A stretch of 49,898 nt of DNA from an uncultured Bacilli bacterium (GCA_944363855.1 CALVVM010000035.1:1-49898), one strand, 5' to 3'. Numbered from the stretch's first letter, positions 2,996 to 21,154 are shown. Numbers and translations are program-made. The notes: generated by a model from the letters alone, not told the origin.

Positions 2996-3094
2996 TATAA
3001 ACATTGTACATCAGTAAGTCGAACTTATTATACTAAACCAACTTGTTCTTGTGCTTCGTCACTAAAAAAATGTAATTGTTCAATTTATGCGAAT

Positions 3095-3292: not shown

Positions 3293-3312
3293 AAAGAAAG
3301 AGGGAATAAAAA

Positions 3313-4176
3313 ATGAATAATTTTATGATAGGTTTTAAAAGATTTATTACAAATAAAAACGTTGTTACAATTTTACTAGTAATAGTGATATTAGTAGTTC
3401 TTTATTTTGGATATAGTGGAAGTATAAAAAAACAAACAAATCCAGTTAGTATGCCAGTTGCTGCTCAAACTATTAGGCCTGGAACTAAAATCACAAGTGA
3501 ACTTTTAGTTTATAAGCAAGTTCCAGCTGGAATGATTGATGAAAGTGCGATTAGAAACACTGTTAACATATTAGATATGTATACTAATGTTAATGTAACT
3601 ATTCCAGCAGGTAGTTTGTTTTATGAAGAATGGTTAGTAGATGAATCAAATTTACCTGGGAATTGGATTGAACAATTAGATTATGAAAAAGGTGAACTTG
3701 GATATTATATGGATGTTAATGTTGAAAGTACATTAGGTAATAATGTTTTACCAAATACTTATATAGATATATATATGAGAGCAACTGATGAAAATGGAAC
3801 TTCAATGTTTGGTAAATTAATGAAAAATGTAAAAGTTTTAGTTGTACACGACGGTAGTGGTAATAATGTTTTTGATGGAGATGAAAATGTTGGTACTCCT
3901 TCAAAAATTGGATTTGGTGTAAGCCAAGATTACTATATTTTACTTAAGAAAGCTGAAGCCTTAAACGACATAGAATTGGTTTTAGCACCTAGAGGATCAA
4001 CTGTTCCAGAACAAGATTCTATAGTTGTTACTAGTCAAACATTAAGAGATTATATAGATGCTCAAACTATAACAGTGGAAGAGGATATAATAACAGGGGA
4101 AATCGAAAATCCAACTGGAGAAGAAATTGTTGAAGATAACAACGTAGTTAATGACAATCAACAAGTAGTGGAGTAA
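3313..4176 (+). CDS. CpaB/RcpC-like Flp pilus assembly protein (N-terminal TM plus SAF-like domain)
   Basis: N-terminal TM VVTILLVIVILVVLYF followed by VAAQTIRPGTKITSELLVYKQVPAGMI, which resembles a CpaB SAF segment. Acidic C-terminal tail. Lies directly upstream of the Tad ATPase. Confidence 0.55.
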   Translation: MNNFMIGFKRFITNKNVVTILLVIVILVVLYFGYSGSIKKQTNPVSMPVAAQTIRPGTKITSELLVYKQVPAGMIDESAIRNTVNILDMYTNVNVTIPAGSLFYEEWLVDESNLPGNWIEQLDYEKGELGYYMDVNVESTLGNNVLPNTYIDIYMRATDENGTSMFGKLMKNVKVLVVHDGSGNNVFDGDENVGTPSKIGFGVSQDYYILLKKAEALNDIELVLAPRGSTVPEQDSIVVTSQTLRDYIDAQTITVEEDIITGEIENPTGEEIVEDNNVVNDNQQVVE

Positions 4177-4177
4177 G

Positions 4178-5299
4178 ATGAACGATAATATATTTGAGGG
4201 AATGGACTTTGGCCCCCTTAAAGAATATTTAGAGAATGATGATGTTACGGATATTTCTTATAGCAACAATGGGCAAGTTTGGTTAAAAACGTTATCTAAA
4301 GGGATATTTAGGATTGAAAATCCAGCAATAAATAATTCCTTTATGGAAAAATTAGCCTTTCAATGTTCAAATGTTATGGGAAAAAGTTTTAATGCGGCGC
4401 ATCCGTTTTTGGATAGTGAAAGTGCAGAACTTCGTATGAACTTTGTACACGATTCTATTGCAAGAAATGGTATTGCCTGTGTTATTCGTAAAACTCCTGC
4501 TAAAATACGTTTAGAAAGAAATAAAATATTAAAAGAAAAATATATAACTGAAGATATATTAGATTTTTTAATAACTTGTGTCCATGGACATTGTAATATA
4601 ATTGTCTGTGGAGAAACTGGTAGTGGTAAGACTGAATTTGTAAAATATTTAGCAGCCAATACACTTGAAAATGAAAAATTAATAACTATAGAAGATACTT
4701 TGGAATTACACTTGGATAGAATTTATCCAAATAGAGATATAGTTGCTATGAAAACAAATAATATAGCAAGCTATTCCGATGTTCTTGTCACTTGTATGAG
4801 ACAAAATCCAAAATGGATATTGTTATCAGAAGTTCGTAGTGCGGAAGCTGTAATGGCTGTTAGAAACTCAATTTCATCAGGTCACTACATATTATCTACA
4901 ATACATGCTGATAAGGCGGCGTCTATACCTAACCGTATGTATAGTTTGCTTGAAACTAATCAGGACATAGAACAATTCTTAAAATCTATTTATAGATATA
5001 TTCAATTAGGTGTGTATATTAGAGGTTATCAAGATAAAGTTTCTAAACGATTTGTAAGAGAAATTGCAGAAGTTACGGAATTTTATGTAACAAGAGATAA
5101 TGAAGCGAAATATAATACGCTTTATAAGAAAACCCCTGATGGGAAAGTTTATAGAAACAATCCTAGTGAATATTTAATTGAGTATTTGGAAGCTCAAGGT
5201 GTTGTGCTTCCAGAAGGCTTTGTTAAAGAAGAATATGAAAAAGATGGAAAGGTAGAAATAATTGAACAAACACAAAAAAATGAAATAATTTTTGAATAG
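4178..5299 (+). CDS. TadA/CpaF-type secretion ATPase (T2SSE / VirB11 superfamily)
   Basis: Walker A CGETGSGKTE, Asp/Walker B box WILLSEVRSAEA, His box LSTIHA. 373 aa. Followed by two T2SSF-like membrane protein genes. Confidence 0.8.
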   Translation: MNDNIFEGMDFGPLKEYLENDDVTDISYSNNGQVWLKTLSKGIFRIENPAINNSFMEKLAFQCSNVMGKSFNAAHPFLDSESAELRMNFVHDSIARNGIACVIRKTPAKIRLERNKILKEKYITEDILDFLITCVHGHCNIIVCGETGSGKTEFVKYLAANTLENEKLITIEDTLELHLDRIYPNRDIVAMKTNNIASYSDVLVTCMRQNPKWILLSEVRSAEAVMAVRNSISSGHYILSTIHADKAASIPNRMYSLLETNQDIEQFLKSIYRYIQLGVYIRGYQDKVSKRFVREIAEVTEFYVTRDNEAKYNTLYKKTPDGKVYRNNPSEYLIEYLEAQGVVLPEGFVKEEYEKDGKVEIIEQTQKNEIIFE

Positions 5300-5309
5300 G
5301 AGGGAAAAT

Positions 5310-6212
5310 ATGAATATAACTTTACTTTTTATAATAGTTGCTATACTAATTATATTTATAATTGTTTATAGAAGTAATGTTGGTGAACAAACTTATCAAT
5401 TTGTAAGTAGACAAGGCAGTAGATTATATAGTAAAGTAGCTCCTTATACATATAAAGAAATTAGAAAAAAAATAAAAGAATTAAAGCAAGATTATACACC
5501 ACAACAATATATAGGACAGTTAATCTTGTTTGCTGCTGGTGGTGGAGTAATTACATATTTATATTTTTACAATTTAGTAATTTCTATAATATATGCTTTA
5601 GTAGCAGTAGCTGCTGTTCCTTACATTAGGTATTTAAGATGCAAAAGACTTTATAGTGAATTTGTTTTTGAACAAATTCAAGTATATACAACAAACGTAA
5701 TAATGGAATTTGCTACTACTCAAAGTTTTGTTAAGGCCCTAGAAGGTGTATATTCATCAGGAGTGCTAGAGGATCCTGTTAAAGCAGATGTAAAAGTTAT
5801 GATAGATATGGCTTATGAAAATGGTACCATTAATCAGTCTTTAGAGTATATGAATGAAAAATATGATTATTATATGGTAAGAAATATGCATCAATTATTC
5901 CTTCAAATAACTAATGAAGGTAGTAAAGATTCTAGCGAATCTTTAGAAAATATGTCTCAAGATATAGATATGCTTGTTGAAGCTGTATATAGAGATAGAA
6001 TTGATAGAGAAGCCTTTTATAAGAAATTTGTTGTATTTGGACTTGTGCTATATATGATGATAGCCCTTGTTCAAATTATGCTTGGAGATACTTATCAGGA
6101 AATGCTTAATTTGTGGTATGTAAATTTAATGCTCCATATGATAGTTATAATTAATACGTATTTTTTACTTGCAGGTACTAAATTTTATAATGAGAATGTG
6201 GGGGCTGAATAA
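5310..6212 (+). CDS. TadB-like platform membrane protein (T2SSF-type)
   Basis: Start chosen at ATG 5310 behind RBS AGGAGGG; the track start at 5292 overlaps the ATPase. N-terminal TM, central TM pair and C-terminal TMs. The cytoplasmic helical region (FVKALEGV...GTINQSLEYM...NEGSKDSSESLENM) fits a T2SSF pattern. Confidence 0.6.
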   Translation: MNITLLFIIVAILIIFIIVYRSNVGEQTYQFVSRQGSRLYSKVAPYTYKEIRKKIKELKQDYTPQQYIGQLILFAAGGGVITYLYFYNLVISIIYALVAVAAVPYIRYLRCKRLYSEFVFEQIQVYTTNVIMEFATTQSFVKALEGVYSSGVLEDPVKADVKVMIDMAYENGTINQSLEYMNEKYDYYMVRNMHQLFLQITNEGSKDSSESLENMSQDIDMLVEAVYRDRIDREAFYKKFVVFGLVLYMMIALVQIMLGDTYQEMLNLWYVNLMLHMIVIINTYFLLAGTKFYNENVGAE

Positions 6213-7003
6213 TGGAATTTATAATAGTAGCAATCGCGGTTATAATTATATTTTTATATAACAAAATAATAGAACCAAAAGTTATAATTGGGCAAGTGAA
6301 TCCAGTGTTAAAAAAACTTATGGAAAAAGATTATGAGTTTTTACTTAGAGTTAGATATAAAGATTCTGATATAGATGTAGGAGCTTTGTTTTCTAGAAGG
6401 ATAAGAGATGGAATACTAATAACTGCAGTATTAATATTTATACTAGCAATTACAGGATATTTGAATTACATGTTTTTAATGTTTTGTTTTATTGCAGGGT
6501 TTATGGTATTTAAAAGTGGATATACTAAATTAAAAAGTTATTATAAAGCAAGATTACATTATATGGACTCTATGCTTCCATATTACTTGAAAAGTTTAGA
6601 GATACTTGTACAACATTATACTGTACCAGTAGCGCTTTCAAGGAGTATAGATACAGCTCCTGAAATTTTTAAACCAGGACTTAGAACATTGGTTGCTAAA
6701 ATAGATGAAGGGGATTCAACTATTCAACCATATATTGATTTTGCTAATGAATATCCAGTTAGAGATTCAATGAGGATGATGAGACTTTTATATCGTTTAG
6801 GATTAGGATCTAACGAGGATAAACATGAACAAATAATGATGTTTTCGAGAACTGTTTCCTCGTTACAAAATAAGGCTAGAGAGTTAAAATATAAAGACCG
6901 CCTAGAGAATATGGAAAAGAGAACAATGATGATGTTGTTCGTAACTGGTGGAGGAGTTTTACTTGTTTTATTTATGTCTATGACAATTATGATGGGAATT
7001 TAG
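6212..7003 (+). CDS. TadC-like platform membrane protein (T2SSF-type)
   Basis: TAATG stop/start overlap with the previous gene. TM helices flank a helical soluble segment (LKSLEILVQHYTVPVALSRSI...DEGDSTIQPYIDFANEYP). Confidence 0.6.
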   Translation: MEFIIVAIAVIIIFLYNKIIEPKVIIGQVNPVLKKLMEKDYEFLLRVRYKDSDIDVGALFSRRIRDGILITAVLIFILAITGYLNYMFLMFCFIAGFMVFKSGYTKLKSYYKARLHYMDSMLPYYLKSLEILVQHYTVPVALSRSIDTAPEIFKPGLRTLVAKIDEGDSTIQPYIDFANEYPVRDSMRMMRLLYRLGLGSNEDKHEQIMMFSRTVSSLQNKARELKYKDRLENMEKRTMMMLFVTGGGVLLVLFMSMTIMMGI

Positions 7004-7005
7004 TG

Positions 7006-7035
7006 TTGATAATCAAACAATTTTTGTGTTATAAT
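7006..7035 (+). promoter_or_regulatory. sigma-A-like promoter with extended -10 in front of the small pilin gene
   Basis: TTGATA at 7006-7011, an 18-nt spacer, and TGT-TATAAT with TATAAT at 7030-7035. Confidence 0.5.
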
Positions 7036-7070
7036 AAAAGTGTATAGATTATGAAAGTAGGTGAGAATGA

Positions 7071-7313
7071 ATGAAAGAAGCAGCAGGAGAAGCTAATATG
7101 ACAGTAATTACAATAGTTTTAATAGCTATAGTATTAGGTGTAGGAACAATTATAGTAACAAACTTAATGTCTTCTACAGCTAAAAAATCTGCTTGTTCTG
7201 AAATAGGTGGAGAACTAAGCGGAAACACTTGTACAGTAACTAAAGCAGGAGGAGCTAAAGTAAGTTATACTTGTTCAAAAGACAAGAATACTGGAGAATG
7301 GTCTTGTAAATAG
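7071..7313 (+). CDS. small Flp/type-IV-pilin-like protein with a 4-Cys C-terminal head
   Basis: 80 aa. Short polar leader MKEAAG, hydrophobic helix MTVITIVLIAIVLGVGTIIV, then a 40-aa segment with 4 Cys. RBS AGGTGAG 6 nt upstream. Has its own promoter. Confidence 0.5.
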   Translation: MKEAAGEANMTVITIVLIAIVLGVGTIIVTNLMSSTAKKSACSEIGGELSGNTCTVTKAGGAKVSYTCSKDKNTGEWSCK

Positions 7314-7328
7314 TATAGGAGGAAATGT

Positions 7329-7802
7329 ATGAAGGAAAGTATAGGATATACAGTTACATTAAATATAATTATTGTATTTTTGATAATTCTTTTTACTTTC
7401 CTTTCTGCAGCTCTTATTTATTTTAAAAGTAATAAAGTAAGTAATGTGATAACTGAAACTATAGAAAAATACGAAGGTTATAATACATATGCAAAAAGTG
7501 AAATTGGATCTAAACTTACATCTTGGGGTTATAATAAATATAAAGTAAATTGTAATAATTATTATAATAAAATAGGAAGTAAGGAAAGACTTAATTGCAG
7601 TAGTAGTTTAACTGATGGTAGTGAAGGTTATTGTGTTTTTGTATGTAGAGAAATGTTTGATGGTGAATGGTATTATTATTATAAAACTAGTACTAATATG
7701 ATGATAAATATACCTTTAATAAATGATTTGTTAAACATTCCTATATTTTCTAATACTAATAGGTTATATGACTTTGAGTGTCAAAGTGAAATATGTAAAT
7801 AG
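7329..7802 (+). CDS. pseudopilin-like (TadE/TadF-like) protein
   Basis: Leader MKESIG followed by the hydrophobic helix YTVTLNIIIVFLIILFTFL. Cys-containing soluble domain. RBS AGGAGG. Confidence 0.4.
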   Translation: MKESIGYTVTLNIIIVFLIILFTFLSAALIYFKSNKVSNVITETIEKYEGYNTYAKSEIGSKLTSWGYNKYKVNCNNYYNKIGSKERLNCSSSLTDGSEGYCVFVCREMFDGEWYYYYKTSTNMMINIPLINDLLNIPIFSNTNRLYDFECQSEICK

Positions 7803-7813
7803 GAAGTGATAAA

Positions 7814-8302
7814 ATGCGAGAATCGTTAGGCGGAAGTATGCTATTAAACTTAGTAGTTATTTTTAGTGGGTTAATTATAATTTTTTTCGTCGGAATTTTA
7901 TCATATTCAAAGGCTTATAGGGTTAAGAATAGAATTGTTGAAATAATAGAAAAATATGGTACTTATGAAAAAATAGATAGTTCAACTAATACAAATATTG
8001 TTACTGATGAACTAAACAATGATTTAAAAGCGGCGGGATATGAGACTTCACTTTCTAAAAAATGTGACACAATTAGAACTCGTTTAGTTAATGAAAAATA
8101 TGATAGTAGTTTGTCACAAAATATTAACAAAAATTATGGTTACAATTATTGTGTATATGAAATGAATAAAAGTACTAATAGTACAGGAAAATACTATGTT
8201 GTTGTGACATTTATTCATTTTCAAGTTCCAATAATAGGGGATTTTTTAACTTTACCTGTTTATGGTGAAACAAAAATTTTAGGAAAAACTTATGATTATT
8301 AA
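7814..8302 (+). CDS. pseudopilin-like (TadE/TadF-like) protein, paralogue of 7329..7802
   Basis: Leader MRESLG followed by GSMLLNLVVIFSGLIIIFF. Shares IVEIIEKYG / ITETIEKYEGY and the C-terminal IPLINDLL / VPIIGDFL motifs with the preceding ORF. Confidence 0.4.
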   Translation: MRESLGGSMLLNLVVIFSGLIIIFFVGILSYSKAYRVKNRIVEIIEKYGTYEKIDSSTNTNIVTDELNNDLKAAGYETSLSKKCDTIRTRLVNEKYDSSLSQNINKNYGYNYCVYEMNKSTNSTGKYYVVVTFIHFQVPIIGDFLTLPVYGETKILGKTYDY

Positions 8303-8317
8303 AAAAGGGGAGATATA

Positions 8318-9313
8318 ATGAATGTTATTGTATCTAATAAAAATCAATTATTATTAGAAAATTTAGGAATAGATATCATTAAAGAGATGAATGGAGAATT
8401 TGAAGTAGATGAAATAATTGCTACATTTCAAAATTTCTTTTATCAAAGAATGATACTTGATATTACGGCAATAAAAAATTATACAGATATGGTTAATTTA
8501 CAAAAATTATCTATTTCTTTAGATATGCAGAAATTAATATTGTTACTAGATGGAACAGAGGAAACTAGTAATCCTAATTTCTTATCTAATTTAGTATCTA
8601 TGGGAATTTATAATTTTACTAAGAATATGGAAGGTATTCAATATTTATATAATACGCCTAATACATATAGGGATGTTGCACAATTTCATAGGTTGGATGC
8701 AACATTTGGTAATGCTGCTATGGCAAATTCTCAACCTATAGTTGCTGCACCTGTGGTAGAAGTTGCTCCACAGCCAGAGTTTTATGGAACTAGAGTTATA
8801 GGAGTTAAAAACGTAACTAAACAATCTGGGGCAAGTAGCTTGGTATATATGATGAAGAATGAACTAAGTAAAAATTATAGTGCAGTTGCTATAGAAGTTG
8901 ATAAAACTGATTTTACTTATTTTAAAGATAAAAGTTTAATATCAACTATAACAAGTGAAGTTGGAAGTGTTATTAACAAGCATAAAGATAAGAATGTAAT
9001 TATTATTGACATTAATAATAGTCTAGTTGCTGAAGGTTTTTGTCAAGATGTGTTATATTTAATTGAACCATCAATTATTAAATTACAAAAATTAATGACA
9101 CTTAATGCTACTGCATTACAAGGTTTAAAAGATAAAAAAATAATTTTAAATCAAAGCTTATTAAGTTCAAGTGAAATTGCTAATTTTGAATATGAAGCTA
9201 GAGTTAAGGTTTTTTATAATTTAGCTCCATTAAACGAAAGAGATAAAAAATTGCCAGAACTTAATAAATTATTAGTTAAGCTTGGGTTTAGTAAACAACA
9301 AAGTGAAATCTAG
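8318..9313 (+). CDS. TadZ/CpaE-like protein (receiver-like N-domain plus degenerate ParA/MinD-type ATPase domain)
   Basis: C-terminal half has VIGVKNVTKQSGASSLVYMM, a deviant P-loop-like segment, and NVIIIDIN, which is Walker-B-like. Position within the Tad module supports the call. Confidence 0.45.
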   Translation: MNVIVSNKNQLLLENLGIDIIKEMNGEFEVDEIIATFQNFFYQRMILDITAIKNYTDMVNLQKLSISLDMQKLILLLDGTEETSNPNFLSNLVSMGIYNFTKNMEGIQYLYNTPNTYRDVAQFHRLDATFGNAAMANSQPIVAAPVVEVAPQPEFYGTRVIGVKNVTKQSGASSLVYMMKNELSKNYSAVAIEVDKTDFTYFKDKSLISTITSEVGSVINKHKDKNVIIIDINNSLVAEGFCQDVLYLIEPSIIKLQKLMTLNATALQGLKDKKIILNQSLLSSSEIANFEYEARVKVFYNLAPLNERDKKLPELNKLLVKLGFSKQQSEI

Positions 9314-9323: not shown

Positions 9324-9743
9324 ATGAAAAAAATATTAAATATATTGTTAATTGTGTTGATTAATTTGATTTTTATTGACATTGTCGGAGCAGAAACGTA
9401 TAATAATTATTCGCCAGCTACTGTTAGTTGCGGGGATGGTTTATTAACTAGTATACCTAATGCTGTTCCAAAAGTTGTTAGTATTGCTTATACAATAATA
9501 CAAATAGCAATACCTGTAATATTGGTTGTTATGGGAACTTTAGATTTATTTAAGGGAATAACAGCTCAAAAAGAAGATGAAATGAAAAAAGGACAGCAAA
9601 TGTTTGTAAAGAGACTTATTGCTGCTGCACTAATTTTCTTCGTGTTTGTTATAGTAAAAGTTGTTGTAAGTTTTGTGGCTGATGGAAGTAGTGTTGCTAT
9701 AATGGAATGTGCAGAGTGTTTTATAAACAACAATTGTGATTAG
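9324..9743 (+). CDS. VirB2/TrbC-like two-helix pilin-module protein, paralogue 1
   Basis: Start at ATG 9324 behind RBS GGGGGAG. Sec signal peptide, a C-G box, helix 1 IIQIAIPVILVVMG, charged loop LDLFKGITAQKEDEMKKGQQ, helix 2 LIAAALIFFVFVIVKVVV, then ECAECFINNNC. Confidence 0.5.
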   Translation: MKKILNILLIVLINLIFIDIVGAETYNNYSPATVSCGDGLLTSIPNAVPKVVSIAYTIIQIAIPVILVVMGTLDLFKGITAQKEDEMKKGQQMFVKRLIAAALIFFVFVIVKVVVSFVADGSSVAIMECAECFINNNCD

Positions 9744-9753
9744 AGGTGAAAAT

Positions 9754-10158
9754 ATGAAGAAAAAAGTATTATTTGTTATTTTATTTGCTATTATGTTTTT
9801 ACCTGTTATAAGTGTAAGTGCTGTAACAAAGGTTGGTTGTGGAAATATAACAGGGATTCCTGAAAAAATTCCAGAATTAACTAGTTTTGCTATAACATTT
9901 ATACAGATAGCTGTGCCTATTGTATTGGTTATAATGGGATCATTAGATTTATTTAAAGGAGTAACTGCTCAAAAAGAAGATGAGATAAAAAAGGGACAGC
10001 AAATGTTCATAAAAAGATTGATATATGCTGCTATAATATTCTTTGTGATAGTAGTTGCTAAACTTTTAATTAGTGTAGTCGCAGATTCTACTACAAGCAA
10101 TAATATAGCGGAATGTATAGATTGTTTCTTAAGTGGAACGGAAAATTGTAGGAGGTAG
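9754..10158 (+). CDS. VirB2/TrbC-like two-helix pilin-module protein, paralogue 2
   Basis: Start at ATG 9754 behind RBS GAGGTGA. Same architecture as paralogue 1, with loop LDLFKGVTAQKEDEIKKGQQ and tail ECIDCFLSGTENC. Confidence 0.5.
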   Translation: MKKKVLFVILFAIMFLPVISVSAVTKVGCGNITGIPEKIPELTSFAITFIQIAVPIVLVIMGSLDLFKGVTAQKEDEIKKGQQMFIKRLIYAAIIFFVIVVAKLLISVVADSTTSNNIAECIDCFLSGTENCRR

Positions 10159-10160
10159 TT

Positions 10161-10571
10161 ATGAAAAAGAAAATATTTATGATAATGATTTTAGCGCTTT
10201 TAGTTTTTTATGCTCCATCTATTTTGGCTGTTAATATGACTGGATGTGAGGCTAATTTACCAGGTGTTGTTATAGATGCTAAAATACCAAATACTGTACA
10301 TACAATAATTGTTGTTATCAAGATAGCTGTACCAGTATTATTAGTAATTTTTGGTATGTTAGATTTATTTAAAGGCTTAACAGCGCAAAAAGAAGATGAA
10401 ATAAAAAAAGGTCAAAATTTATTTATTAAAAGACTTATATCAGCAGCTATAATATTCTTTGTAATATCAATTGTACAATTGATGGTTAGTTTTGTAGCTG
10501 GTGATGAAGGTATAATGACATGTGCTAATTGTTTTATAAATGGTGTTAAAAGCGACGGAACATGTAAATAG
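10161..10571 (+). CDS. VirB2/TrbC-like two-helix pilin-module protein, paralogue 3
   Basis: RBS AGGAGG. Signal peptide, loop LDLFKGLTAQKEDEIKKGQN, tail CANCFINGVKSDGTC. Confidence 0.5.
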   Translation: MKKKIFMIMILALLVFYAPSILAVNMTGCEANLPGVVIDAKIPNTVHTIIVVIKIAVPVLLVIFGMLDLFKGLTAQKEDEIKKGQNLFIKRLISAAIIFFVISIVQLMVSFVAGDEGIMTCANCFINGVKSDGTCK

Positions 10572-10579
10572 GAGGGTTT

Positions 10580-11698
10580 ATGGTAGAAGCTTTAAAAAAA
10601 TTGGATAAAAAGTTTTTAATAATAGCAGGTTGTATTATTTTAATTCCAATATTTGTTATAGTATTTTTAGCTATAGTACAAGGATGTAGTGGTGGAACTA
10701 TCACTTACGAGAAATATGAACAAAAAATGATTTCAGCAGCTCAAAAATATTTTGCTGATAAAAATAAAATTCCAGTTGAGGAATCAGATTTAGTTACAGT
10801 TAAATTGAATAAATTAGTTAGTGGAGGATATATTAAATCTACTGAGGATTTATTGGAAGATAGTACTTGTGATGGTGAAGTTAATATTAGAAGAAATGGC
10901 TCATCTATTGAAACCAATGGAGATGGTTTCTTGAATTATACTGTTACTTTAAATTGCGATGATTATAGTACTACACATCTTGTGGATAAAATAAAAGAAG
11001 ATGTTGTGATAACTGAGTCTGGTTTGTATCAAATTGGTGAAGATTATGTATTTAAAGGAGATAAAGTTAATAATTATATTAATATATTTGATATTAGTTA
11101 TAGAATAATGAGTATAGATAAAAATAATATAATTAAACTTGTAAAATCTGAACCAGAAATAACATCTAGAATTTGGGATAATAAATTTAATATTGAAGTT
11201 AATCATTCATACGGTAAAAACATATATAAAGATAGCGTCATTTTAACTTATTTATTAAATGATTATGAAAATGCTAAAAAAGTAAGTAAAAAAGCAAAAC
11301 AACATATAGTAGCGTACGATGTATGTATCGGTAAAAGAAGTGTTAATGACTATAGTATAAGTAAAGAATTAGATTGTTCGCAAGTGTTAGAAAATCAGGT
11401 TATATCTTTAATGAATGTTTCTGATTTTGCTATGGCAAGTTCAGATCCTGATTGTAATTCTACAACATCTAGAGCTTGTAAAAATTATAACTATTTATCA
11501 AAAATTGCTACTTCTACTTGGACGTTGAATACTGTAAGCGAAAATACTTATGAAGCTTTCTTTATTTCAGATGGATTATCTGAACATCAAAATGCTAATT
11601 CATATAATGAATATAATATAGTTATTTATATCGATGGAAATGAACTTTATACTTCAGGAGAAGGTACTGCTTTAAATCCATATATAATAAATGAATAA
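10580..11698 (+). CDS. N-terminally anchored large extracellular protein, candidate pilus-associated or adhesin-like component
   Basis: RBS AGGAGGG. One N-terminal TM. A segment (LVTVKLNKLVSGGYIKSTEDLLEDSTCDGEV) is reminiscent of ComGC-type pilin heads. Cys-containing C-domain ends in SGEGTALNPYII. Confidence 0.3.
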   Translation: MVEALKKLDKKFLIIAGCIILIPIFVIVFLAIVQGCSGGTITYEKYEQKMISAAQKYFADKNKIPVEESDLVTVKLNKLVSGGYIKSTEDLLEDSTCDGEVNIRRNGSSIETNGDGFLNYTVTLNCDDYSTTHLVDKIKEDVVITESGLYQIGEDYVFKGDKVNNYINIFDISYRIMSIDKNNIIKLVKSEPEITSRIWDNKFNIEVNHSYGKNIYKDSVILTYLLNDYENAKKVSKKAKQHIVAYDVCIGKRSVNDYSISKELDCSQVLENQVISLMNVSDFAMASSDPDCNSTTSRACKNYNYLSKIATSTWTLNTVSENTYEAFFISDGLSEHQNANSYNEYNIVIYIDGNELYTSGEGTALNPYIINE

Positions 11699-11700
11699 TA

Positions 11701-11729
11701 TTGACTTTTATTATAAAAAAATATATAAT
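11701..11729 (+). promoter_or_regulatory. near-consensus sigma-A promoter TTGACT-N17-TATAAT
   Basis: TTGACT at 11701-11706, a 17-nt spacer, TATAAT at 11724-11729. Lies 25 nt upstream of ATG 11754, which has RBS AGGAGG. Confidence 0.6.
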
Positions 11730-11753
11730 TAAATTAGATTAGGAGGAAAGAAA

Positions 11754-12131
11754 ATGATTTTAGCAAAAGTTTTAATGAGTGGTGAATATACTTGTGGAGG
11801 TACTAATTTAGTTTTCTCTGGAACTTTCCCATATTTAGTTTCAACAATAGTTTTATTAATTAAAATAGCTGTTCCGATTTTACTTATTATATTTGGTATG
11901 TTGGATTTAGGTAAAGCTGTAGTTGCATCAAAAGAAGATGAAATTAAAAAAGGTCAAGGATTGTTTATTAAACGCGCGATTTCTGCAGTTGTTGTATTCT
12001 TTGTAATTCAAATAGTGCAAATAATTGTTAGATTTGTTTCTGGAAATGATGCTTCAGTAGCAAACTGCTTTAACTGTTTTATAAACGGGACTTCAGCAAG
12101 TAATGCTTGTGAATCTACAGTAGTAGAATAA
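11754..12131 (+). CDS. VirB2/TrbC-like two-helix pilin-module protein, paralogue 4 (own promoter and terminator; candidate major subunit)
   Basis: 125 aa with no long Sec-type signal peptide (MILAKVLMSGEYTCGG). Loop LDLGKAVVASKEDEIKKGQG, tail CFNCFINGTSASNAC. Confidence 0.5.
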   Translation: MILAKVLMSGEYTCGGTNLVFSGTFPYLVSTIVLLIKIAVPILLIIFGMLDLGKAVVASKEDEIKKGQGLFIKRAISAVVVFFVIQIVQIIVRFVSGNDASVANCFNCFINGTSASNACESTVVE

Positions 12132-12142
12132 TGAAATTATGG

Positions 12143-12176
12143 GTGCAAATAATATTGATTATTTGCACTTTTTTTG
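12143..12176 (+). terminator. strong rho-independent terminator
   Basis: Perfect 11-bp stem GTGCAAATAAT (12143-12153) / ATTATTTGCAC (12158-12168), loop ATTG, then T7. Confidence 0.8.
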
Positions 12177-12183
12177 TTATAAT
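12175..12183 (+). promoter_or_regulatory. extended -10 element TGT-TATAAT ahead of the VirB6-like gene
   Basis: TGTTATAAT at 12175-12183, about 48 nt upstream of ATG 12231. Confidence 0.4.
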
Positions 12184-12230: not shown

Positions 12231-14615
12231 ATGTTTGTATTAGCAAATATGTGGTTTCAAACATTAATGAGACAATTTTTCTTTAATATTGATAAGATTG
12301 TTTTTAATTTTATATCAACAATTTATGATTTTTTAATAACTATTGCTAGGACATCGGTTCTTTCGCAAGCAGATATTATGGATATGGCTGATAGAATTTA
12401 TAAGTTGTTAGCTATTTTTATGATATTTAAAGTTACATTTTCTTTAATAATGTATGTAGTTAATCCAGATGACTTTTCTGATAAAAATAAGGGAGTTGGA
12501 AAACTAGGCACTAATATAGTTATATCTTTAGCTTTATTAATCTTAACTCCTTATATATTTAGTTATGCATATCAATTACAAACAATTATTTTAGAAGACA
12601 ACTCTTTATCAGCGCTTATTTTTGGTGATGCACAAGAAAATTCTACAGAATCACCATTTGAAAGCGCGGGAGATTCGATGGCTTATATTACCATGGCACC
12701 GTTCTTTACTCCTAATGCTGCAATAGATGAGTTATATGAATGCGCACAATTGACTACTAAAGATTCAAATGGCAAAGTGGTTTTTAATGAAGCTTGTTCT
12801 GGGTTGAATTCAAATTATGAATCTACAAATGATACTGATTCGATGTATGCTTTAGTAAATGATAGATTTACAGAGCAAACTTTAAAGAATTATGTAGCAG
12901 GTGTTTCAGTAGGAAATCTTGGACTTATGTTTAGACAAGATATGGCAGTTGCTACTGATGAAGATAATACAGAATATATAATTGATTATAAATATTTATT
13001 TAGTACAGTTCTTGGAATTGTTGTGGTTTTATTACTTGTTACATTCTGTATGGATGTTGCACTTCGTAGTATAAAACTTGCATTTTTACAATTAGTTGCG
13101 CCTATTCCAATTATCTCTTTTGTAGATCCTAAGAGTGGAAAAGACGGAATGTTTAAAAAATGGGCTGAGATGTGCGTTAAAACATATATAAGTTTATTTA
13201 TTCGATTATTAGCTATCTATTTTGCTGCTTATATAATTAGTAGAATTGATAGTATGGTAGATATTATAGATGGTTCTTATGTAAGTAATTTATTAGTAAA
13301 AATATTTATCATAATAGGTGCTTTAATGTTTGCTAAGCAATTACCTAAAATACTTGAAGGTTTAGGAATTAAATTAGATGGTGGATTTACTTTAAACCCT
13401 TTAAAGAAAATGGAAAACGAAATGCTTGGAGGGAAGACTGTTTCTAAAACTGGAAAAGAAGTGGGAAAATATGCTGGAAGATTAGGAAAAGGATTAGGTA
13501 CTGCGGCCTTAGTTGGTGGTAGTTCGTTAGTTATGGGTCATGGTTTTAGAGGTACAGGAACAGCAATGAAAAATGCTTGGAAAGGAGAAAAATTTGGAAA
13601 GAATTTTTCAAATTCATATGGAGTAGCTAAAGCGAAACATAAAGAAAGAGATGAAATGGAAGCTGCTGGAGTAACTCGAAGTGATGTTATGAAAAACAAA
13701 TGGTATAATGCTAGACATGGGGAAACTAGAATGGAAAGAGCAGCAACTTCAACAAAAAAAATGGAAGCTGTAGCTAAATCATGGGATGATTTTACAGGCG
13801 CTGTAACTGCTGTAGATAAAGAAGCGAAAAGACGTAAGGCTGTAGTAGATGGAATTAAACAAGCTGGTACCGCAGCGTTTACAGATCAAGAAAGTTTAAC
13901 AGCACAACAACAATACGATTCTGCTGTTGCTACAAAAAATTCTCAAATATCTAAATTAGAAGAGAGAAGAAAAGAAAGTGTAAATAAAACTAGTCAAATA
14001 AAGATTGATCAAACAAGATTAAGAAATGAACAATCTAAGTTAAATAGAGCAGATTTTTCTTCTGACGCTGAATTTTATGAAGCAAGGGCCAATTATACGC
14101 AAAGAATAGCTGCGTTAGACGAAGAATTAAAACAATATGACATAAAAACATTAGATCAAGAAATTAATAAAACAAAAGCTGAAAGAGATAATTTAGCTGT
14201 AACTGACTTTAAAGATATTGTTGGAAAATCAGCGGCTGATCAATATGAAGAAGCAATCAAGAAAGCAGAAGGCGATTTAGACGATTATGTTAATGCGGTA
14301 GTAGATGGAAGTCAAAAAATATATGATGGAACATCTGATGGTTCTGCCGGTGGTAAAGAAGCAGAAATTAGAGTTGCCAATATTAAAGCTGCTAGAGATA
14401 AGTTAATTGCACAAATTAATGCTGAACAAATCGAATATGTGGATGGCGCTGGTCAACAACAAGTAATTGAAATAGGTATGTTAGATCAAAATGGTAAACC
14501 TTTATCTGCTAAAGCAATTGCAAAAGGTACTGTTGGCAAGAAAAATGCATGGCATAGTTCAAGCACTTACGATCAAATGGAATCTGTTGCTAGATTTACT
14601 GGAGAAAAGAAATAA
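12231..14615 (+). CDS. VirB6/TcpH/TrbL-like polytopic T4SS channel protein with a long hydrophilic coiled-coil C-terminal half
   Basis: Start at ATG 12231 behind RBS AGGAGG. At least 6 TM helices in the first ~400 aa. The last ~390 aa are K/E/A/Q-rich and heptad-like. Lies directly upstream of the VirB3- and VirB4-like genes. Confidence 0.6.
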   Translation: MFVLANMWFQTLMRQFFFNIDKIVFNFISTIYDFLITIARTSVLSQADIMDMADRIYKLLAIFMIFKVTFSLIMYVVNPDDFSDKNKGVGKLGTNIVISLALLILTPYIFSYAYQLQTIILEDNSLSALIFGDAQENSTESPFESAGDSMAYITMAPFFTPNAAIDELYECAQLTTKDSNGKVVFNEACSGLNSNYESTNDTDSMYALVNDRFTEQTLKNYVAGVSVGNLGLMFRQDMAVATDEDNTEYIIDYKYLFSTVLGIVVVLLLVTFCMDVALRSIKLAFLQLVAPIPIISFVDPKSGKDGMFKKWAEMCVKTYISLFIRLLAIYFAAYIISRIDSMVDIIDGSYVSNLLVKIFIIIGALMFAKQLPKILEGLGIKLDGGFTLNPLKKMENEMLGGKTVSKTGKEVGKYAGRLGKGLGTAALVGGSSLVMGHGFRGTGTAMKNAWKGEKFGKNFSNSYGVAKAKHKERDEMEAAGVTRSDVMKNKWYNARHGETRMERAATSTKKMEAVAKSWDDFTGAVTAVDKEAKRRKAVVDGIKQAGTAAFTDQESLTAQQQYDSAVATKNSQISKLEERRKESVNKTSQIKIDQTRLRNEQSKLNRADFSSDAEFYEARANYTQRIAALDEELKQYDIKTLDQEINKTKAERDNLAVTDFKDIVGKSAADQYEEAIKKAEGDLDDYVNAVVDGSQKIYDGTSDGSAGGKEAEIRVANIKAARDKLIAQINAEQIEYVDGAGQQQVIEIGMLDQNGKPLSAKAIAKGTVGKKNAWHSSSTYDQMESVARFTGEKK

Positions 14616-14635: not shown

Positions 14636-14956
14636 ATGGAAAATTCATATTTAATACCAGCAAATTCAAAGAAGAGTTTGCTTAAGTTTGGAGCATTTAA
14701 TACAGTAGATTTAATAATATTTGGATGTGGGATAGGGCTATCGTTCTTGTTAATGATGCTCCTTCCTGTAGACAAATTTGCTATAGCTGTATTAGCTATT
14801 AGTCCAGGTCTTATATGTGGTTTCTTGGTTTTACCGATTCCAAATTATCATAATATAAGAACTGTTATAAAAAATGCTTGGATTTTCTATACTACTAGAC
14901 AAAAATATATATGGAAGGGTTGGTGCTTTGAATATGTCGAAAGAAATAAAAAGTAA
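14636..14956 (+). CDS. PrgI/VirB3-like small two-TM T4SS protein
   Basis: 106 aa. N-terminus IPANSKKSLLKFGAFNTVDLIIFGCGIGLSFLL followed by a second TM. Immediately precedes VirB4. Confidence 0.55.
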   Translation: MENSYLIPANSKKSLLKFGAFNTVDLIIFGCGIGLSFLLMMLLPVDKFAIAVLAISPGLICGFLVLPIPNYHNIRTVIKNAWIFYTTRQKYIWKGWCFEYVERNKK

Positions 14957-15473
14957 ATATACTGATGTTCCTGTAAAGGATATCGCTAATGGTGTTATAG
15001 TACTTGATAATAATCAAAAAGTAACTGGCGTAAAAATAATGCCAAGAAATATTTTTATACTTGATCAATCAATGCAAGATGCAATTATTATGAATTTAAG
15101 AAATGTATATAATGCTATTGATTATGAGTTTTGGATTGTAGTTGCTGATAGACCAGTTGATATAAATGTTTATTTATCTCAATTACAACTTTTATACAAT
15201 CAAGTAACTGACACTAAAAAAAGAAAATTAATTTTGGAAGATATTAATAAAGCTAATATGTTTATGAATAATAATGTGGTTGATACAGAATATTTCTTAC
15301 TATTTAAAGATAAAGATAGTGATTTATTGCAAAAAAGAATTCGTAATTTGATTAATAATTTTGCAAGTGCAGGATTAACTGCATTTCAAACAAATAATGA
15401 TGATTTAAGAATGATACTTGATAATTTCTTAAATGGTGGACAAACTACTACATTTGGGACGGTGTTAGCATAA
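14934..15473 (+). CDS. VirB4 N-terminal domain encoded as a separate ORF (Tn916 Orf16-like N-terminus)
   Basis: Start at ATG 14934 (MSKEIK). DVPVKDIANGVIVLDNNQKVTGVKIMPRNIFILDQSMQDAII matches the usual N-terminal pattern of Gram-positive VirB4 proteins. Ends in a TAATG overlap with the ATPase ORF. Confidence 0.6.
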   Translation: MSKEIKSKYTDVPVKDIANGVIVLDNNQKVTGVKIMPRNIFILDQSMQDAIIMNLRNVYNAIDYEFWIVVADRPVDINVYLSQLQLLYNQVTDTKKRKLILEDINKANMFMNNNVVDTEYFLLFKDKDSDLLQKRIRNLINNFASAGLTAFQTNNDDLRMILDNFLNGGQTTTFGTVLA

Positions 15474-17257
15474 TGGATATAAGAAGTCAAATTGCTCCAA
15501 AAGGTTTGGAGTTTAAATCAAACGAATTTATTATTAGTGATAAATATGCTTGTATATTAACTGTAATATCTTATCCAAAATTTATATATCCAGGATATTT
15601 AAGTAGTTTAACTAGTATGTCTGGAATTAAAGTAGTAATTAAACATATACCACTTCCTTTTAGTAGTATAAGTAAAATGTTAAATAAAGAACTTGCGGAT
15701 TTAAAACAAAGATATCAAGATGAAAAAGATAAAACTATTCAAGAAAGAATCAGACAAGATTATGAATCATTAGAAATCTTTATTAGTGATTTAGCCGCAA
15801 GTCAATCTAAAATATATGATTTTCAAATGCATGTTATGATAACTGCTAATACACAAGAAGAATTGGATTCTAAAAAATTACAAGTAAAAAATTATTTAGA
15901 AGCAATGGAAATGAGAGCTATACCTTTACGCTTTGAACAAGATAAGGTATTAAAATCAATATTACCTATATATGGTAAACAAGATATTGAAGATAGAATA
16001 GGGACTCCAATTCCTTCTCCAAGTATTGCGGCCATGTATCCATTTATATTTGATAGTATTAAAGATCCAGGATTGTCTACTTTACTTGGAATAGATTTTT
16101 CTGGTGGTGTAATTTTATTTAACCAATTCTTATATCAAATAAAGAAGGAACACAATCGTAATAATGCTAATATGATTATCTTAGGTACTTCTGGTAGTGG
16201 TAAATCTACTGCAGCTAAATTAATGTTAAGAAGTCATATTAGAAATAATAATCAAATTGTTGTAATAGATCCAGAAGGAGAATTAGAAGATATGACTTAT
16301 TCTTTTGATGGGGATTTCATTAGTTTAGGTAAGGGTGGATCTTTTGGTATGATAAATCCACTTGAAGTAGTAGTTGATGCTGATGAAGAAGAAATGAGAC
16401 AAGGATTAGGTTATACTGTTTTAACTAGGACTTTACAAACTATAAAAGCATTTTTAAAATACTATGATCCTAGTATTGAGGAAGATGTTGTTAATATGTT
16501 TAGTGAAGTTGTACAAGAAACATATAAGAGATTTGGTATAGATTTTGAAGTAGATTTTACTAAATTTAAATCAGAAGATTATCCTACTTTTAAAGATGTT
16601 TATGCAACTATAAAAGGTAGAATATTATCTATGCCAGAAAAGACTCAAGAAAGAGATGTTCTTGAAAAATTAGAAATAAAAATAAGACCTATTGTTAAAG
16701 AATTAAGGTATTATTTTGATGGTCATACTACTATAAAACCACAAAGTAATTTTATAGTATTTAACATAAAAGAAATTATGAATGCAGATGCCAATATAAG
16801 AAATGCTTTATTCTTTAATATATTGAAGTATGCTTGGGGACTTACTTTAGATAGTTCTGTAAATACTGTTATGATGGTTGATGAAGCACACGTACTTTTA
16901 AGTGGTGGAAATACACTAGGTGCTGATTTTTTAGCACAAATCCAAAGACGTGCGAGAAAGTACAATACTGGTACTATAATCATAACTCAACAACCAACAG
17001 ATTTTAGTGACCCTAGTGTAATTACTCAAGGAAAAGCTATATTTGATAATGCTTCTTATTATTTAGTTATGGGATTAAAGAAACAAGCTGTTGATGATTT
17101 AGCTAAGTTAATAGATTTAAATGATAACGAAAAAGAGAGTATTAAACAATATGGACAAGGAGAGGCTTTGTTTGTATGTGGAAGTAGAAGAATGAGAATA
17201 AATATAATTGTATCAGATGAAGAATTAGATTCATTTGGTAGTGGTGGAGGATTATAA
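15473..17257 (+). CDS. virB4: VirB4-family T4SS ATPase, C-terminal portion (middle and ATPase domains)
   Basis: Walker A LGTSGSGKST, Walker B VMMVDEAH, then ARKYNTGTIIITQQ. 594 aa. Confidence 0.8.
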   Translation: MDIRSQIAPKGLEFKSNEFIISDKYACILTVISYPKFIYPGYLSSLTSMSGIKVVIKHIPLPFSSISKMLNKELADLKQRYQDEKDKTIQERIRQDYESLEIFISDLAASQSKIYDFQMHVMITANTQEELDSKKLQVKNYLEAMEMRAIPLRFEQDKVLKSILPIYGKQDIEDRIGTPIPSPSIAAMYPFIFDSIKDPGLSTLLGIDFSGGVILFNQFLYQIKKEHNRNNANMIILGTSGSGKSTAAKLMLRSHIRNNNQIVVIDPEGELEDMTYSFDGDFISLGKGGSFGMINPLEVVVDADEEEMRQGLGYTVLTRTLQTIKAFLKYYDPSIEEDVVNMFSEVVQETYKRFGIDFEVDFTKFKSEDYPTFKDVYATIKGRILSMPEKTQERDVLEKLEIKIRPIVKELRYYFDGHTTIKPQSNFIVFNIKEIMNADANIRNALFFNILKYAWGLTLDSSVNTVMMVDEAHVLLSGGNTLGADFLAQIQRRARKYNTGTIIITQQPTDFSDPSVITQGKAIFDNASYYLVMGLKKQAVDDLAKLIDLNDNEKESIKQYGQGEALFVCGSRRMRINIIVSDEELDSFGSGGGL

Positions 17258-17277: not shown

Positions 17278-19218
17278 ATGCCTGATGAAAATTTAAATCA
17301 AAATGCTGAACAAAAAATGTTATCAGATGCAGAAGTGCAAAGAAGGCGTAATGTTGCCAATAACGCAAATAATGTTAGATTAGCTGCGGATGTTGCAGCT
17401 AATACGGCAAACCCTTATGCTAAAGCAGCGGGTTTAGCTGTGAAGACTGCTGATAAATTAAGTGATGGAAAAGCATCAGAAAAACTTGGTAAAACTATGG
17501 ATAATTTTATGAAAACACAAGGTTTGAAGGGTAAAATGATGCAAGCTGCCCTAAATAAAATGAGCGAAAGTGGAACAAGTGATAGGATTGCAGCAGCAGC
17601 AAACAAAAAAAATGGTGCTCCATCATCACCTAAAAAAGGAAATTTAACAGAAAATAATGTTGAAGATAGTTCGTCTAAATTGAAAGAGACAGAAGATCAA
17701 ACAGATGGTGGATCAGCAAGTTTTAGTTTTTCTTCTAAAGTTGTAAAATATGGAATAATCGGTTGTGCAGCTGCTTTTTTGCTACTAATACCTATTTGTT
17801 TGTTTACATCTGCATCTAGTATTTATATTAAATCTATAGGTTTAGGTAACGCTGATTCTGTTAGTTTTGAAGATGCAGAAAGTAAAATAAATAAAAAGCA
17901 AGAAGATACCGAAGAAGTAGAAGAAGGTGTAACTGAAGATGATTTAAGCTTTGATGTTTTTATTGAAGATGAACATACTTCTTTTAGAACACAAAAATTA
18001 GAAAAATCAAATTTAATTAAAATTGCTCAAACAACATATTTAAGAAGAAAATATACAGAAGCAGATTTATCTAATTTAGAGGATTTTTATCCTACTGTGG
18101 TTAGTTTAAGTAAGAATTATGATGAAAATATGGTGTATGATTTCTTCTTTAAGATGTATAATTTGTATACCACTTATAGAGATACATACAATGTTCATTT
18201 AGATTTACCTTTATTAATGTCAACATTGATGGTGCAATCTGATGATATGAATGTTATATTTAGTTCAAATTTAAGTAAAGAAGATAGAGCGAAAACAGCT
18301 AGAAAAAAACCAATAAAGGAATTTGACTATTATTACGATTGGTCAGGACATATTTTGGAATCAAACGTTAGTACAAATGATATGGAAATATTAGCACAAC
18401 GTATGGTTTCTTATCAAGTTAAAGAAACTTGTACGGATACTTCAGGAAAAGTAACACAAGAAAAACTTTTAAGAGATAATGAAACTAAAAATCAAGCACT
18501 ATTTTGTATTGAGGGTGAAACTTATAAAAGAGAAGAACTTGGAATGCAAATAGATAAGGAAAAATATAAAGAATTTTTAAAAGAATTTTTAGAAAAAAAA
18601 TATTATGTACTCGATGAAACTGGTTTATCTAGTAATCCAGTTGACGGATTGGAAATTTCTACGGGCACTTCTAGTATTGCGAAAGGAAATTCTTTTGCAG
18701 ATGTAATGATTAACCTTGCCAACAATGAGTATAAATTGACAAACGGTGAAAAATATGGAATGAAGTATATTAATGCTTATGGGAATAAGTCCTTTGGAAA
18801 AGGAACTCCTTGGTGTGCAATGTTTGCTTGGTATATAACAGCAAATACAAAATATAATGGACAATCTTTATATCCAGATATAATACCGTTTAAAACAGCT
18901 GCTGTAAGAACTTATATTAAAAAGTTTAATACTAGCGAAAAAGAGAATATAAATTTTTATTATAACGATAGCTGTAAAAATTTAAAGGGTAAAAATGGTA
19001 ATTTAAATTATATACCTAAAAAAGGAGATTTTATATTTTATGATTGGCAAGCTAAATATTATGATATCTCATCAGATACACAGGATCATGTTGCAATCGT
19101 AGAAAAATATGAAAATGGTACAATATATACTATTGAAGGAAATTATAGTAATACGGTATCAAAAGCAAAATACTCTATAAATGATTGCCGTGTAATTGGT
19201 TTTGGATCATGGTATTAG
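17278..19218 (+). CDS. membrane-anchored cell-wall hydrolase with a C-terminal CHAP (NlpC/P60-like) domain (PrgK/TcpG/VirB1 analogue)
   Basis: RBS AGGAGG. About 160-aa Ala/Lys-rich N-terminus, TM GIIGCAAAFLLLIPICLF, then a C-terminal GTPWCAMFAWYI...DHVAIVE...TIEGN Cys-His CHAP signature. Confidence 0.7.
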   Translation: MPDENLNQNAEQKMLSDAEVQRRRNVANNANNVRLAADVAANTANPYAKAAGLAVKTADKLSDGKASEKLGKTMDNFMKTQGLKGKMMQAALNKMSESGTSDRIAAAANKKNGAPSSPKKGNLTENNVEDSSSKLKETEDQTDGGSASFSFSSKVVKYGIIGCAAAFLLLIPICLFTSASSIYIKSIGLGNADSVSFEDAESKINKKQEDTEEVEEGVTEDDLSFDVFIEDEHTSFRTQKLEKSNLIKIAQTTYLRRKYTEADLSNLEDFYPTVVSLSKNYDENMVYDFFFKMYNLYTTYRDTYNVHLDLPLLMSTLMVQSDDMNVIFSSNLSKEDRAKTARKKPIKEFDYYYDWSGHILESNVSTNDMEILAQRMVSYQVKETCTDTSGKVTQEKLLRDNETKNQALFCIEGETYKREELGMQIDKEKYKEFLKEFLEKKYYVLDETGLSSNPVDGLEISTGTSSIAKGNSFADVMINLANNEYKLTNGEKYGMKYINAYGNKSFGKGTPWCAMFAWYITANTKYNGQSLYPDIIPFKTAAVRTYIKKFNTSEKENINFYYNDSCKNLKGKNGNLNYIPKKGDFIFYDWQAKYYDISSDTQDHVAIVEKYENGTIYTIEGNYSNTVSKAKYSINDCRVIGFGSWY

Positions 19219-19227
19219 GAGGAAAAA

Positions 19228-19890: not shown

Positions 19891-19901
19891 GGTGAAGTAA
19901 G

Positions 19902-21146: not shown

Positions 21147-21154
21147 GTGATAAG

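Follow-up and report, generated by a model that had tools for sequence, protein, structure and literature searches.

Monoderm bacteria have been described as lacking VirB2 homologues (Guglielmini et al. 2014, PMC4027160), and a 2025 nomenclature review treats VirB2 and VirB5 as absent from Gram-positive type IV secretion systems (T4SSs), with the Patescibacteria as the one exception; these are called unique among monoderm bacteria in their potential for conjugative pili (PMC12857230). Patescibacterial T4SSs, exemplified by those of Southlakia epibionticum ML1 and Nanosynbacter lyticus TM7x (PMC10633639, PMC12102498, PMC12857230), are chromosomal, derive from MPF-FATA, mostly lack a relaxase and act alongside type IV pili (PMC10633639, PMC12102498). 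They contain essential arrays of VirB2-like pilins (PMC12102498, PMC10633639, PMC12857230), which comprise 2–11 genes of at most 54% identity and whose origin was left open (PMC12102498). Here, an array of comparable kind was characterized computationally in 49,898 nt of DNA from an uncultured Bacilli bacterium (GCA_944363855.1 CALVVM010000035.1:1-49898; hereafter the window, with positions counted from its first letter). Four paralogous genes, designated p1–p4 by array position, are in our assessment probably T4SS_pilin-type subunits (PF18895), which in monoderms correspond to VirB2, in a chromosomal, lineage-conserved machine of uncultured gut Bacilli that combines a Tad-like pilus with an MPF-FATA-like T4SS; any filament built from them is hypothetical. 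The array consists of the following genes.

9324..9743, + strand: p1, T4SS_pilin-like paralogue at position 1, with a Sec-type signal peptide and four cysteines
9754..10158, + strand: p2, paralogue at position 2, with a signal peptide; PF18895 match at E = 1.3e-3 (19.2 bits)
10161..10571, + strand: p3, paralogue at position 3, with a signal peptide; modelled as a hairpin by AlphaFold2
10580..11698, + strand: g15, a 372-residue protein interposed within the array, with one N-terminal membrane helix and a Cys-rich ectodomain
11754..12131, + strand: p4, paralogue at position 4, with a short non-Sec leader; the most conserved copy and candidate major subunit; PF18895 match at E = 4.9e-4

The locus shares with the Patescibacterial systems a single-membrane host, a chromosomal location, the lack of any relaxase seen, an additionally encoded type IV pilus system, an MPF-FATA-type T4SS with VirB1-, VirB3-, VirB4- and VirB6-like parts, and matches of the PF18895 type. 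Its array is of similar size and divergence (four genes at 41–58% identity, against the 2–11 genes at up to 54% noted above), and its layout, four genes plus the interposed 372-residue gene with VirB4 2.5–3.3 kb downstream, is that of a Patescibacteria-type array. It differs in its host, a sporulating Firmicute lineage of the Bacillus class; in the presence of VirD4 (22144–24216), whereas no coupling protein was recognized in the S. epibionticum locus; in its two peptidoglycan hydrolases; in carrying type IV pilus genes within the T4SS gene string; and in a conserved four-Cys pattern and PF18895 scores that mostly lie under threshold.

Like VirB2/TrbC (PF04956) and the F-type TraA (8cue, 8exh), the four proteins are small, with two long hydrophobic helices, a short basic loop and both termini predicted outside, and their genes adjoin those for VirB6, VirB3 and VirB4. 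The termini would be tied together in both cases, by cyclization in T-pilin and TrbC and by a putative disulfide here, so that a Cys link would stand in place of a peptide bond. Unlike these pilins, the present proteins are larger (~110 mature residues) with structured tails, have no detectable sequence or profile similarity to them, face no outer membrane, and are accompanied by neither a TraF-type cyclase nor VirB5. The DNA-import pili of archaea (Ced/Ted; CedA1, TedC), which are named in PMC12102498 and PMC12857230, can be likened to the locus by description alone, as VirB2-type filaments of a conjugation-like machine that cooperates with type IV pili in a single-membrane cell; unlike the present system, they are archaeal and their direction of transport is import. 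Mycoplasma integrative conjugative elements (ICEs; Mbov_0396/0397 families) provide the nearest NCBIfam models for the VirB6-like and VirB3/VirB4 proteins, with scores that here all lie under the family cut-offs; these elements are mobile, and neither pilin arrays nor a Tad-like module have been reported in them. No paper describing the present locus was found in the literature.

Four paralogues with a common module

An initial annotation of this DNA had proposed four open reading frames (ORFs) with a common module, and all four were recovered on the + strand. Protein alignment gave 41–58% identity among the copies (41–53% relative to p1) and 35 invariant columns, which include an N-tail Cys-Gly box, a proline in helix 1, FFV of helix 2, a CxxCF motif and a final Cys. 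The loop between the helices is likewise invariant in the pattern L-D-L-x-K...K-E-D-E-x-K-K-G-Q...K-R. Judged from the sequences, the paralogy of p1–p4 is certain and not a product of chance, since pairwise BLASTP comparisons yielded E-values of 5e-39 to 9e-16 at a nominal database size of 1e8.

When the window was scanned with a hidden Markov model (HMM) of the family, two longer members were picked up in addition to p1–p4. The count of four therefore holds for the array, but not for the window, for which the initial annotation had overlooked the following two genes.

26799..28022, + strand: fifth family member, 407 residues, in which a large Cys-rich ectodomain precedes the pilin module at the C terminus; PF18895 match of 30.3 bits, above the cut-off
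34848..35855, + strand: sixth family member, 335 residues, with an N-terminal Cys-rich ectodomain and a pilin module; among housekeeping genes

Housekeeping genes, and not those of the T4SS, surround both; the 407-residue type is found in other species within the array, between position 4 and VirB6. The family as a whole is large, with at least 4,942 members in a 90%-identity collection, none of which carries a name from any source in a cluster look-up, and at least 7,715 clusters at 50% identity (E ≤ 1e-3). N- or C-terminal extensions were present in 104 of 150 family representatives, and many members have ectodomains of 100–350 residues. The domains fused to some representatives (P0121–P0270) include dockerin, Listeria-Bacteroides repeat, GDSL lipase and YkuD L,D-transpeptidase.

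Relationship to the T4SS_pilin family

PF18895 was the sole Pfam family whose match was consistent with the genomic context. The p4 match extended over profile positions 7–71 of 71 with 20.6 bits, below the gathering cut-off of 26.6 bits. In the literature, VirB2-like pilins have been called at an i-Evalue < 0.001 with >50% profile coverage (PMC12102498); judged by whole-protein E-values, p4 would fall inside this definition, p2 just outside (1.3e-3), and p1 and p3 outside. Among relatives, PF18895 was matched at E < 0.01 by 17 of 66 close relatives and 32 of 150 representatives, with a best value of 9.5e-7. Homology of p1–p4 to a bona fide PF18895 member could be demonstrated through the 407-residue protein, whose C-terminal module matches p1–p4 by BLASTP at 1e-8 to 1e-9 and the family HMM at 5e-19.

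No similarity to VirB2, TrbC and TraA themselves, as implied by the initial annotation, could be detected by sequence, profile or fold (hhalign, hmmsearch, Foldseek), and PF04956 gave no match to p1–p4 at E ≤ 0.1. A lack of similarity to the diderm pilins is to be expected, because the proteins are short and fast-evolving; homology to VirB2 proper thus rests on the attribution of the Pfam family itself and on the genomic context. Other profile matches were set aside: Pfam matches to DUF621, 7tm_1 and COX1 were judged to be compositional matches of membrane helices, and NCBIfam matches of p1–p4 to MamI and ThiP were noise.

Two other identities were also considered. VirB3 is a small two-helix protein with both termini in the cytoplasm and no signal peptide, and its gene adjoins or is fused to that for VirB4. 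This identity was rejected for p1–p4, for which the opposite topology is predicted, and the VirB3 slot is filled by 14636–14956. Type IV pilins of the Tad, Flp and Com kinds have a short class III leader that ends in Gly and is followed by one hydrophobic helix; p1–p4, with Sec-type or short non-Gly leaders and two helices, are not of this type. A pilin-type identity of p1–p4 is likely.

Membrane topology and leaders

Across 194 small members, the loop contains on average 6.05 Lys and Arg residues, compared with 0.61 for the N-tail and 1.83 for the C-tail. Because positive charge is concentrated in the loop, the loop is predicted to be cytoplasmic and both tails to lie outside; the ectodomains found at either tail in the 104 extended representatives are consistent with both tails being outside. 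In VirB2 and TraA, the loop is likewise in the cytoplasm and both tails are outside. The AlphaFold2 model of p3 has two helices of ~34 residues each (41–74 and 78–112), with a predicted local distance difference test (pLDDT) score of 83–90 in the core and 72.9 overall. Charge counts and hairpin model thus fit the VirB2-type two-helix topology that had been proposed from the sequence.

Long leaders in the family were Sec-like in 89 of 107 cases. The signal peptide that the initial annotation named as part of the conjugative-pilin topology is found in p1–p3, where it is of the Sec type; p4 has no signal peptide, and starts instead with a 13-residue leader, MILAKVLMSGEYT, followed by CGG. The N terminus of the VirB6-like protein encoded downstream (12231–12260; MFVLAN, with M[FY][VI]L[AS] in orthologues) resembles the MILA/MFLA leader of the position-4 pilins (11754–11790), a likeness that may be due to chance or to a common insertion or processing signal.

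Conserved cysteines

Four Cys columns are nearly invariant among the small members from ~77 loci (192/192, 193/193, 183/193 and 177/179). Of 520 unique members, all but one of those with the second CxxC Cys have another Cys downstream. Fourteen members have lost the second CxxC Cys and retained the first; a further Cys is absent from 10 of these, and present twice in 3 and once in 1. The 407-residue paralogue keeps just the N-tail Cys and one C-tail Cys, and Cys counts are even in all predicted exported proteins of the cluster when membrane and lipobox segments are excluded. From these patterns of co-loss, the simplest reading is that two disulfides would form, a clamp between the N-tail Cys and the first CxxC Cys and a second bond between the second CxxC Cys and the last Cys. 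The comparative pattern backs the disulfide clamping of the tails suggested earlier, including the link from N-tail to C-tail. By analogy, the clamp may play the role that head-to-tail cyclization has in T-pilin and TrbC.

Transcription signals and subunit hierarchy

Three sites bracket p4 and point to a transcription unit of its own.

11701..11729, + strand: promoter-like site before p4, TTGACT-17-TATAAT, followed by an AGGAGG ribosome-binding site
12141..12170, + strand: terminator-like hairpin and T-run after p4, the sole such site in the first 20 kb
12155..12183, + strand: promoter-like site for a restart before the VirB6-like gene, TTGATT-17-TATAAT with a TG extension

The p4 promoter motif was present in 46 of 48 orthologous spacers (median 59 nt), compared with 0.75% of control windows, and was found upstream of most other cluster genes at 0–10%. 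Exceptions were a Flp-like pilin (36/62), the VirB6 restart site (23/64), the minor prepilin at 7329 (14/66) and p1 (11/61). Hairpins of −10 kcal/mol or stronger followed position 4 in 25 of 48 loci versus 12.5% of controls. With a mean identity of 66%, position 4 is in addition the best conserved of the four. Because of its own conserved promoter and terminator and its high conservation, p4 is proposed as the major subunit; p1–p3 and the long forms are likely minor or tip subunits. The suggestion of several variants, or of major and minor subunits, is thereby strengthened, as the four positions are also old orthologous groups (see below).

Two further promoter-like sites were observed. The gene for the 80-residue Flp-like pilin (window 7006–7313; four Cys) is preceded by a near-consensus promoter of its own, a TG-extended TTGATA-18-TATAAT, which mirrors that of p4, and a 12/12 sigma-70 consensus, TTGACA-17-TATAAT, occurs at 9376–9404 inside the p1 coding region, in AT-rich sequence.

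Distribution and divergence of the array

Family relatives were found on 203 stretches in contigs of one genome per species, of which 77 loci were kept. Almost all are from metagenome-assembled genomes (MAGs) of uncultured gut Bacilli, 'Tenericutes' and Erysipelotrichaceae, and the contigs that carry several of them are 200–660 kb long. Together with the sporulation genes GerQ and YabP in the window, this bears out the monoderm host that had been assumed. From its first gene to VirB4 and the CHAP hydrolase, the gene string keeps the same order in ~70 loci. The layout of three pilins, the 372-residue gene and one pilin is kept in ~47 loci; elsewhere there are two copies or extra long-form copies. 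In another species (L011/L069), RmuC, the 407-residue pilin-domain protein, RNase R and SmpB are also encoded downstream. Neither plasmids nor viral contigs yielded a relative: 72,556 plasmids were searched with the region by megablast and with p4 by tblastn, and the IMG/VR viral contigs were scanned. This distribution is easier to reconcile with a chromosomal machine maintained by vertical descent than with a typical mobile element; alternatively, it may reflect an old, domesticated or very widespread ICE.

Between species, the cytoplasmic engine proteins are 83–94% identical, and the pilins and other exported parts 44–71%; VirB4 is 91–95% identical across species in which the pilins are 50–80% identical, and divergence within the pilins is concentrated in the tails. 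For 176 of 182 proteins, the nearest relative occupies the same array position in another genome, and for 2 of 182 it lies in the own genome. For this reason, p1–p4 are taken to be old orthologous groups that have not been kept similar by gene conversion.

The loop and helix cores had been described as conserved at the DNA level, which is correct: nucleotide identity among the copies is 62–80% in the core and 46–56% elsewhere. The further suggestion, that these cores allow recombination between copies, is contradicted by codon analysis and by the position of the nearest relatives. No two copies share an identical stretch longer than 17 nt. Where residues are identical, the same codon is used about as often as expected from the codon usage of the window (observed/expected for the six pairs: 25/23.2, 18/20.7, 12/16.0, 21/22.6, 15/18.8 and 24/20.9), so the conserved cores are explained by amino-acid conservation and codon bias. 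Gene conversion among the copies was rejected on these grounds together with the same-position relatives.

Genomic neighbourhood

The array stands in one gene string with a Tad-like module upstream and T4SS genes downstream. The main neighbouring features are as follows.

2549..9313, + strand: Tad-like type IV pilus module, co-operonic, with four prepilin-like genes, a CpaB-like gene, a T2SSE ATPase, two platform-like genes and a 331-residue gene
12231..14615, + strand: VirB6/TrbL-like polytopic membrane protein, matching NCBIfam Mycoplasma ICE transmembrane families and, weakly, TrbL_4
14636..17257, + strand: VirB3-like protein and VirB4 in three ORFs (14636–14956, 14874–15473 and 15473–17257)
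17278..24216, + strand: remaining T4SS module, with a CHAP hydrolase, a lipoprotein, an M23 and lysozyme hydrolase, two small single-helix membrane proteins and VirD4
46570–47685: tyrosine integrase, at the far end of the window
48403–49656, − strand: IS110-family transposase, at the far end of the window

The ORF of the VirB6-like protein opens at 12189, and gene callers place its start at 12231. The three VirB3/VirB4 ORFs align successively to positions 2–94 (VirB3-like), 104–276 and 295–891 of the Mycoplasma ICE VirB4 model, which is the best model for VirB4 (346 bits); this three-ORF split is kept in ~60 loci. The VirD4 coupling protein belongs to the CD1115 family (22144–24216; 295 bits, cut-off 250). 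In the Tad-like module, four genes (2549, 7071, 7329 and 7814) have a common prepilin-like leader, M[KR]E[SA]xG; no prepilin peptidase was found within the 50-kb window. The module is colinear with the T4SS in ~50–70 loci. The protein encoded by g15 is constant in length, is 57–88% identical among its database relatives and gave a confident AlphaFold2 model (pLDDT 86; predicted template modelling score 0.81); it had no match in Pfam or NCBIfam, and a Foldseek search of the model against the PDB gave no meaningful match.

The cluster is followed by core genes for RmuC, RNase R, SmpB, YabP, DivIC, GerQ, GreA, QueA, MiaA and RecD2. With a G+C content of ~27% and the sporulation proteins GerQ and YabP, the window is chromosomal DNA of a low-G+C sporulating Firmicute. 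About 22 kb of core genes separate the T4SS cluster from the integrase and transposase, and the window holds no other integrase or transposase. No relaxase family matched any window ORF of at least 100 residues, and no transfer RNA (tRNA) or transfer-messenger RNA (tmRNA) gene that could serve as an integration site was detected in the 50 kb by ARAGORN. No Rfam family was found in the window, and hence no riboswitch control was detected. The window contains an SmpB gene (31390–31830), yet neither a tmRNA nor a tRNA gene was detected in it by ARAGORN or Rfam.

Discussion

If p1–p4 are pilin subunits, each would be inserted into the membrane as a helical hairpin that exposes both tails on the outside and keeps the basic K-E-D-E-x-K-K-G-Q loop on the cytoplasmic side. 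The two disulfides would then form outside the cell, giving a non-covalent-backbone analogue of the cyclization of T-pilin and TrbC, and the invariant loop may be the handle by which the conserved VirB4/VirB6 engine extracts and polymerizes the subunits. Overproduced from its own promoter and terminator unit, p4 would form a shaft or stalk; p1–p3, made at operon level, would be minor, initiating or tip subunits, and their orthologues in other species often have extra N- or C-terminal ectodomains. The structure would traverse the wall through an opening made by the CHAP and M23/lysozyme hydrolases, and may cooperate with the neighbouring type IV pilus in cell-cell contact and transfer.

Several observations weigh against a pilus of this kind. 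All four proteins score under Pfam's own PF18895 cut-off, and p1 and p3 did not match the family at E ≤ 0.1. More members are matched by DUF621, a spurious nematode membrane family, than by PF18895, so that a weak match to membrane helices counts for little by itself. The family profile gave a probability of <1% against Agrobacterium tumefaciens VirB2 (whose sequence was checked against 8cue/8exh) and F TraA with hhalign, and hmmsearch with the same profile returned nothing from PDB sequences at E ≤ 10. When the p3 model was compared with the PDB by Foldseek, no match reached E ≤ 0.001 and no pilin was listed; simple hairpins are poorly discriminated in such a search. Large ectodomains are hard to pack into a helical shaft and fit a membrane-anchor role equally. 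In the window, no disulfide oxidoreductase, pilin peptidase or VirB5-like gene was found, and both the disulfide connectivity and the strength of the p4 promoter are drawn from comparative patterns. To our knowledge, no pilus has ever been seen for a Firmicute T4SS.

These points lend some weight to a view of p1–p4 as membrane-resident T4SS components that make no filament, in which the hairpin would be a docking or anchoring device beside VirB6 that presents tails or ectodomains such as adhesins or enzymes. Extensions in 104 of 150 representatives, among them dockerin, Listeria-Bacteroides repeat, GDSL lipase and YkuD, would suit such a role, as would the two ectodomain-bearing window members away from the T4SS genes, the lack of a structural match to any solved pilin, and the description of Firmicute T4SSs as pilus-less (PMC4027160, PMC12857230). 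However, a small p4 gene with its own apparently strong promoter and terminator (46 of 48 loci) suggests a high-copy structural subunit and not a stoichiometric channel part, the sole family match that fits the context is T4SS_pilin, and arrays of at least four paralogues are typical for pilins (PMC12102498); we regard this account as rather unlikely.

It is improbable that the whole cluster is an ordinary ICE, as opposed to a co-opted chromosomal machine, and that its four array genes encode accessory mating-pair proteins that serve DNA conjugation. A CD1115-family VirD4 above its cut-off (295 versus 250 bits), a VirB4 nearest to the Mycoplasma ICE model (346 bits), two wall hydrolases, and the integrase and IS110 transposase at 46.5–49.7 kb are what such an element would contain. 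Against this, no relaxase was matched in any window ORF of 100 residues or more, the integrase is ~22 kb away, beyond RNase R, SmpB, GreA, QueA, MiaA and RecD2, and colinear versions of the cluster occur in ~70 loci, several on 200–660-kb contigs, with RmuC, RNase R and SmpB downstream in another species too (L011/L069). The 91–95% identity of VirB4 across species whose pilins are 50–80% identical, and the lack of plasmid or viral relatives, argue in the same direction. A variation system, in which the DNA cores of the tandem copies would permit recombination or conversion into new pilin variants, is very improbable: the cores are indeed 62–80% identical in DNA, and tandem VirB2 paralogues of Bartonella and Anaplasma have been discussed as a source of antigenic variation (PMC12102498), but the 17-nt longest identical run, the identical-codon counts equal to codon-bias expectation, and closest relatives at the same position elsewhere for 176 of 182 proteins (in the own genome for 2) all run counter to it.

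With T4SS_pilin-kind subunits as the preferred reading, a homologous pilin array beside an MPF-FATA-like T4SS in the class Bacilli, in ~70 species-level genomes, widens the exception made for Patescibacteria, and makes the locus a candidate bridge between Firmicute conjugation machines and the Patescibacterial system. Its features lend themselves to testing, namely the major subunit p4, the two disulfides and the invariant cytoplasmic loop. A more far-reaching proposal, which we offer tentatively and consider somewhat doubtful, is that a Bacilli lineage, including MAGs labelled Tenericutes or Mycoplasmatota incertae sedis, keeps a one-string, chromosomal, apparently relaxase-less machine in which a type IV pilus is joined to a T4SS that builds a disulfide-stapled VirB2-type pilus from one major and three or more minor subunits. 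If true, this would be the first conjugative-type pilus in a true Firmicute, and the machine could be related to, or could even have given rise to, the pilin-bearing T4SS on which the epibiotic growth of Patescibacteria depends; it would also hint at a contact-dependent lifestyle for the Bacilli that carry it. The locus points to an unrecognized surface organelle in abundant, uncultured gut bacteria.

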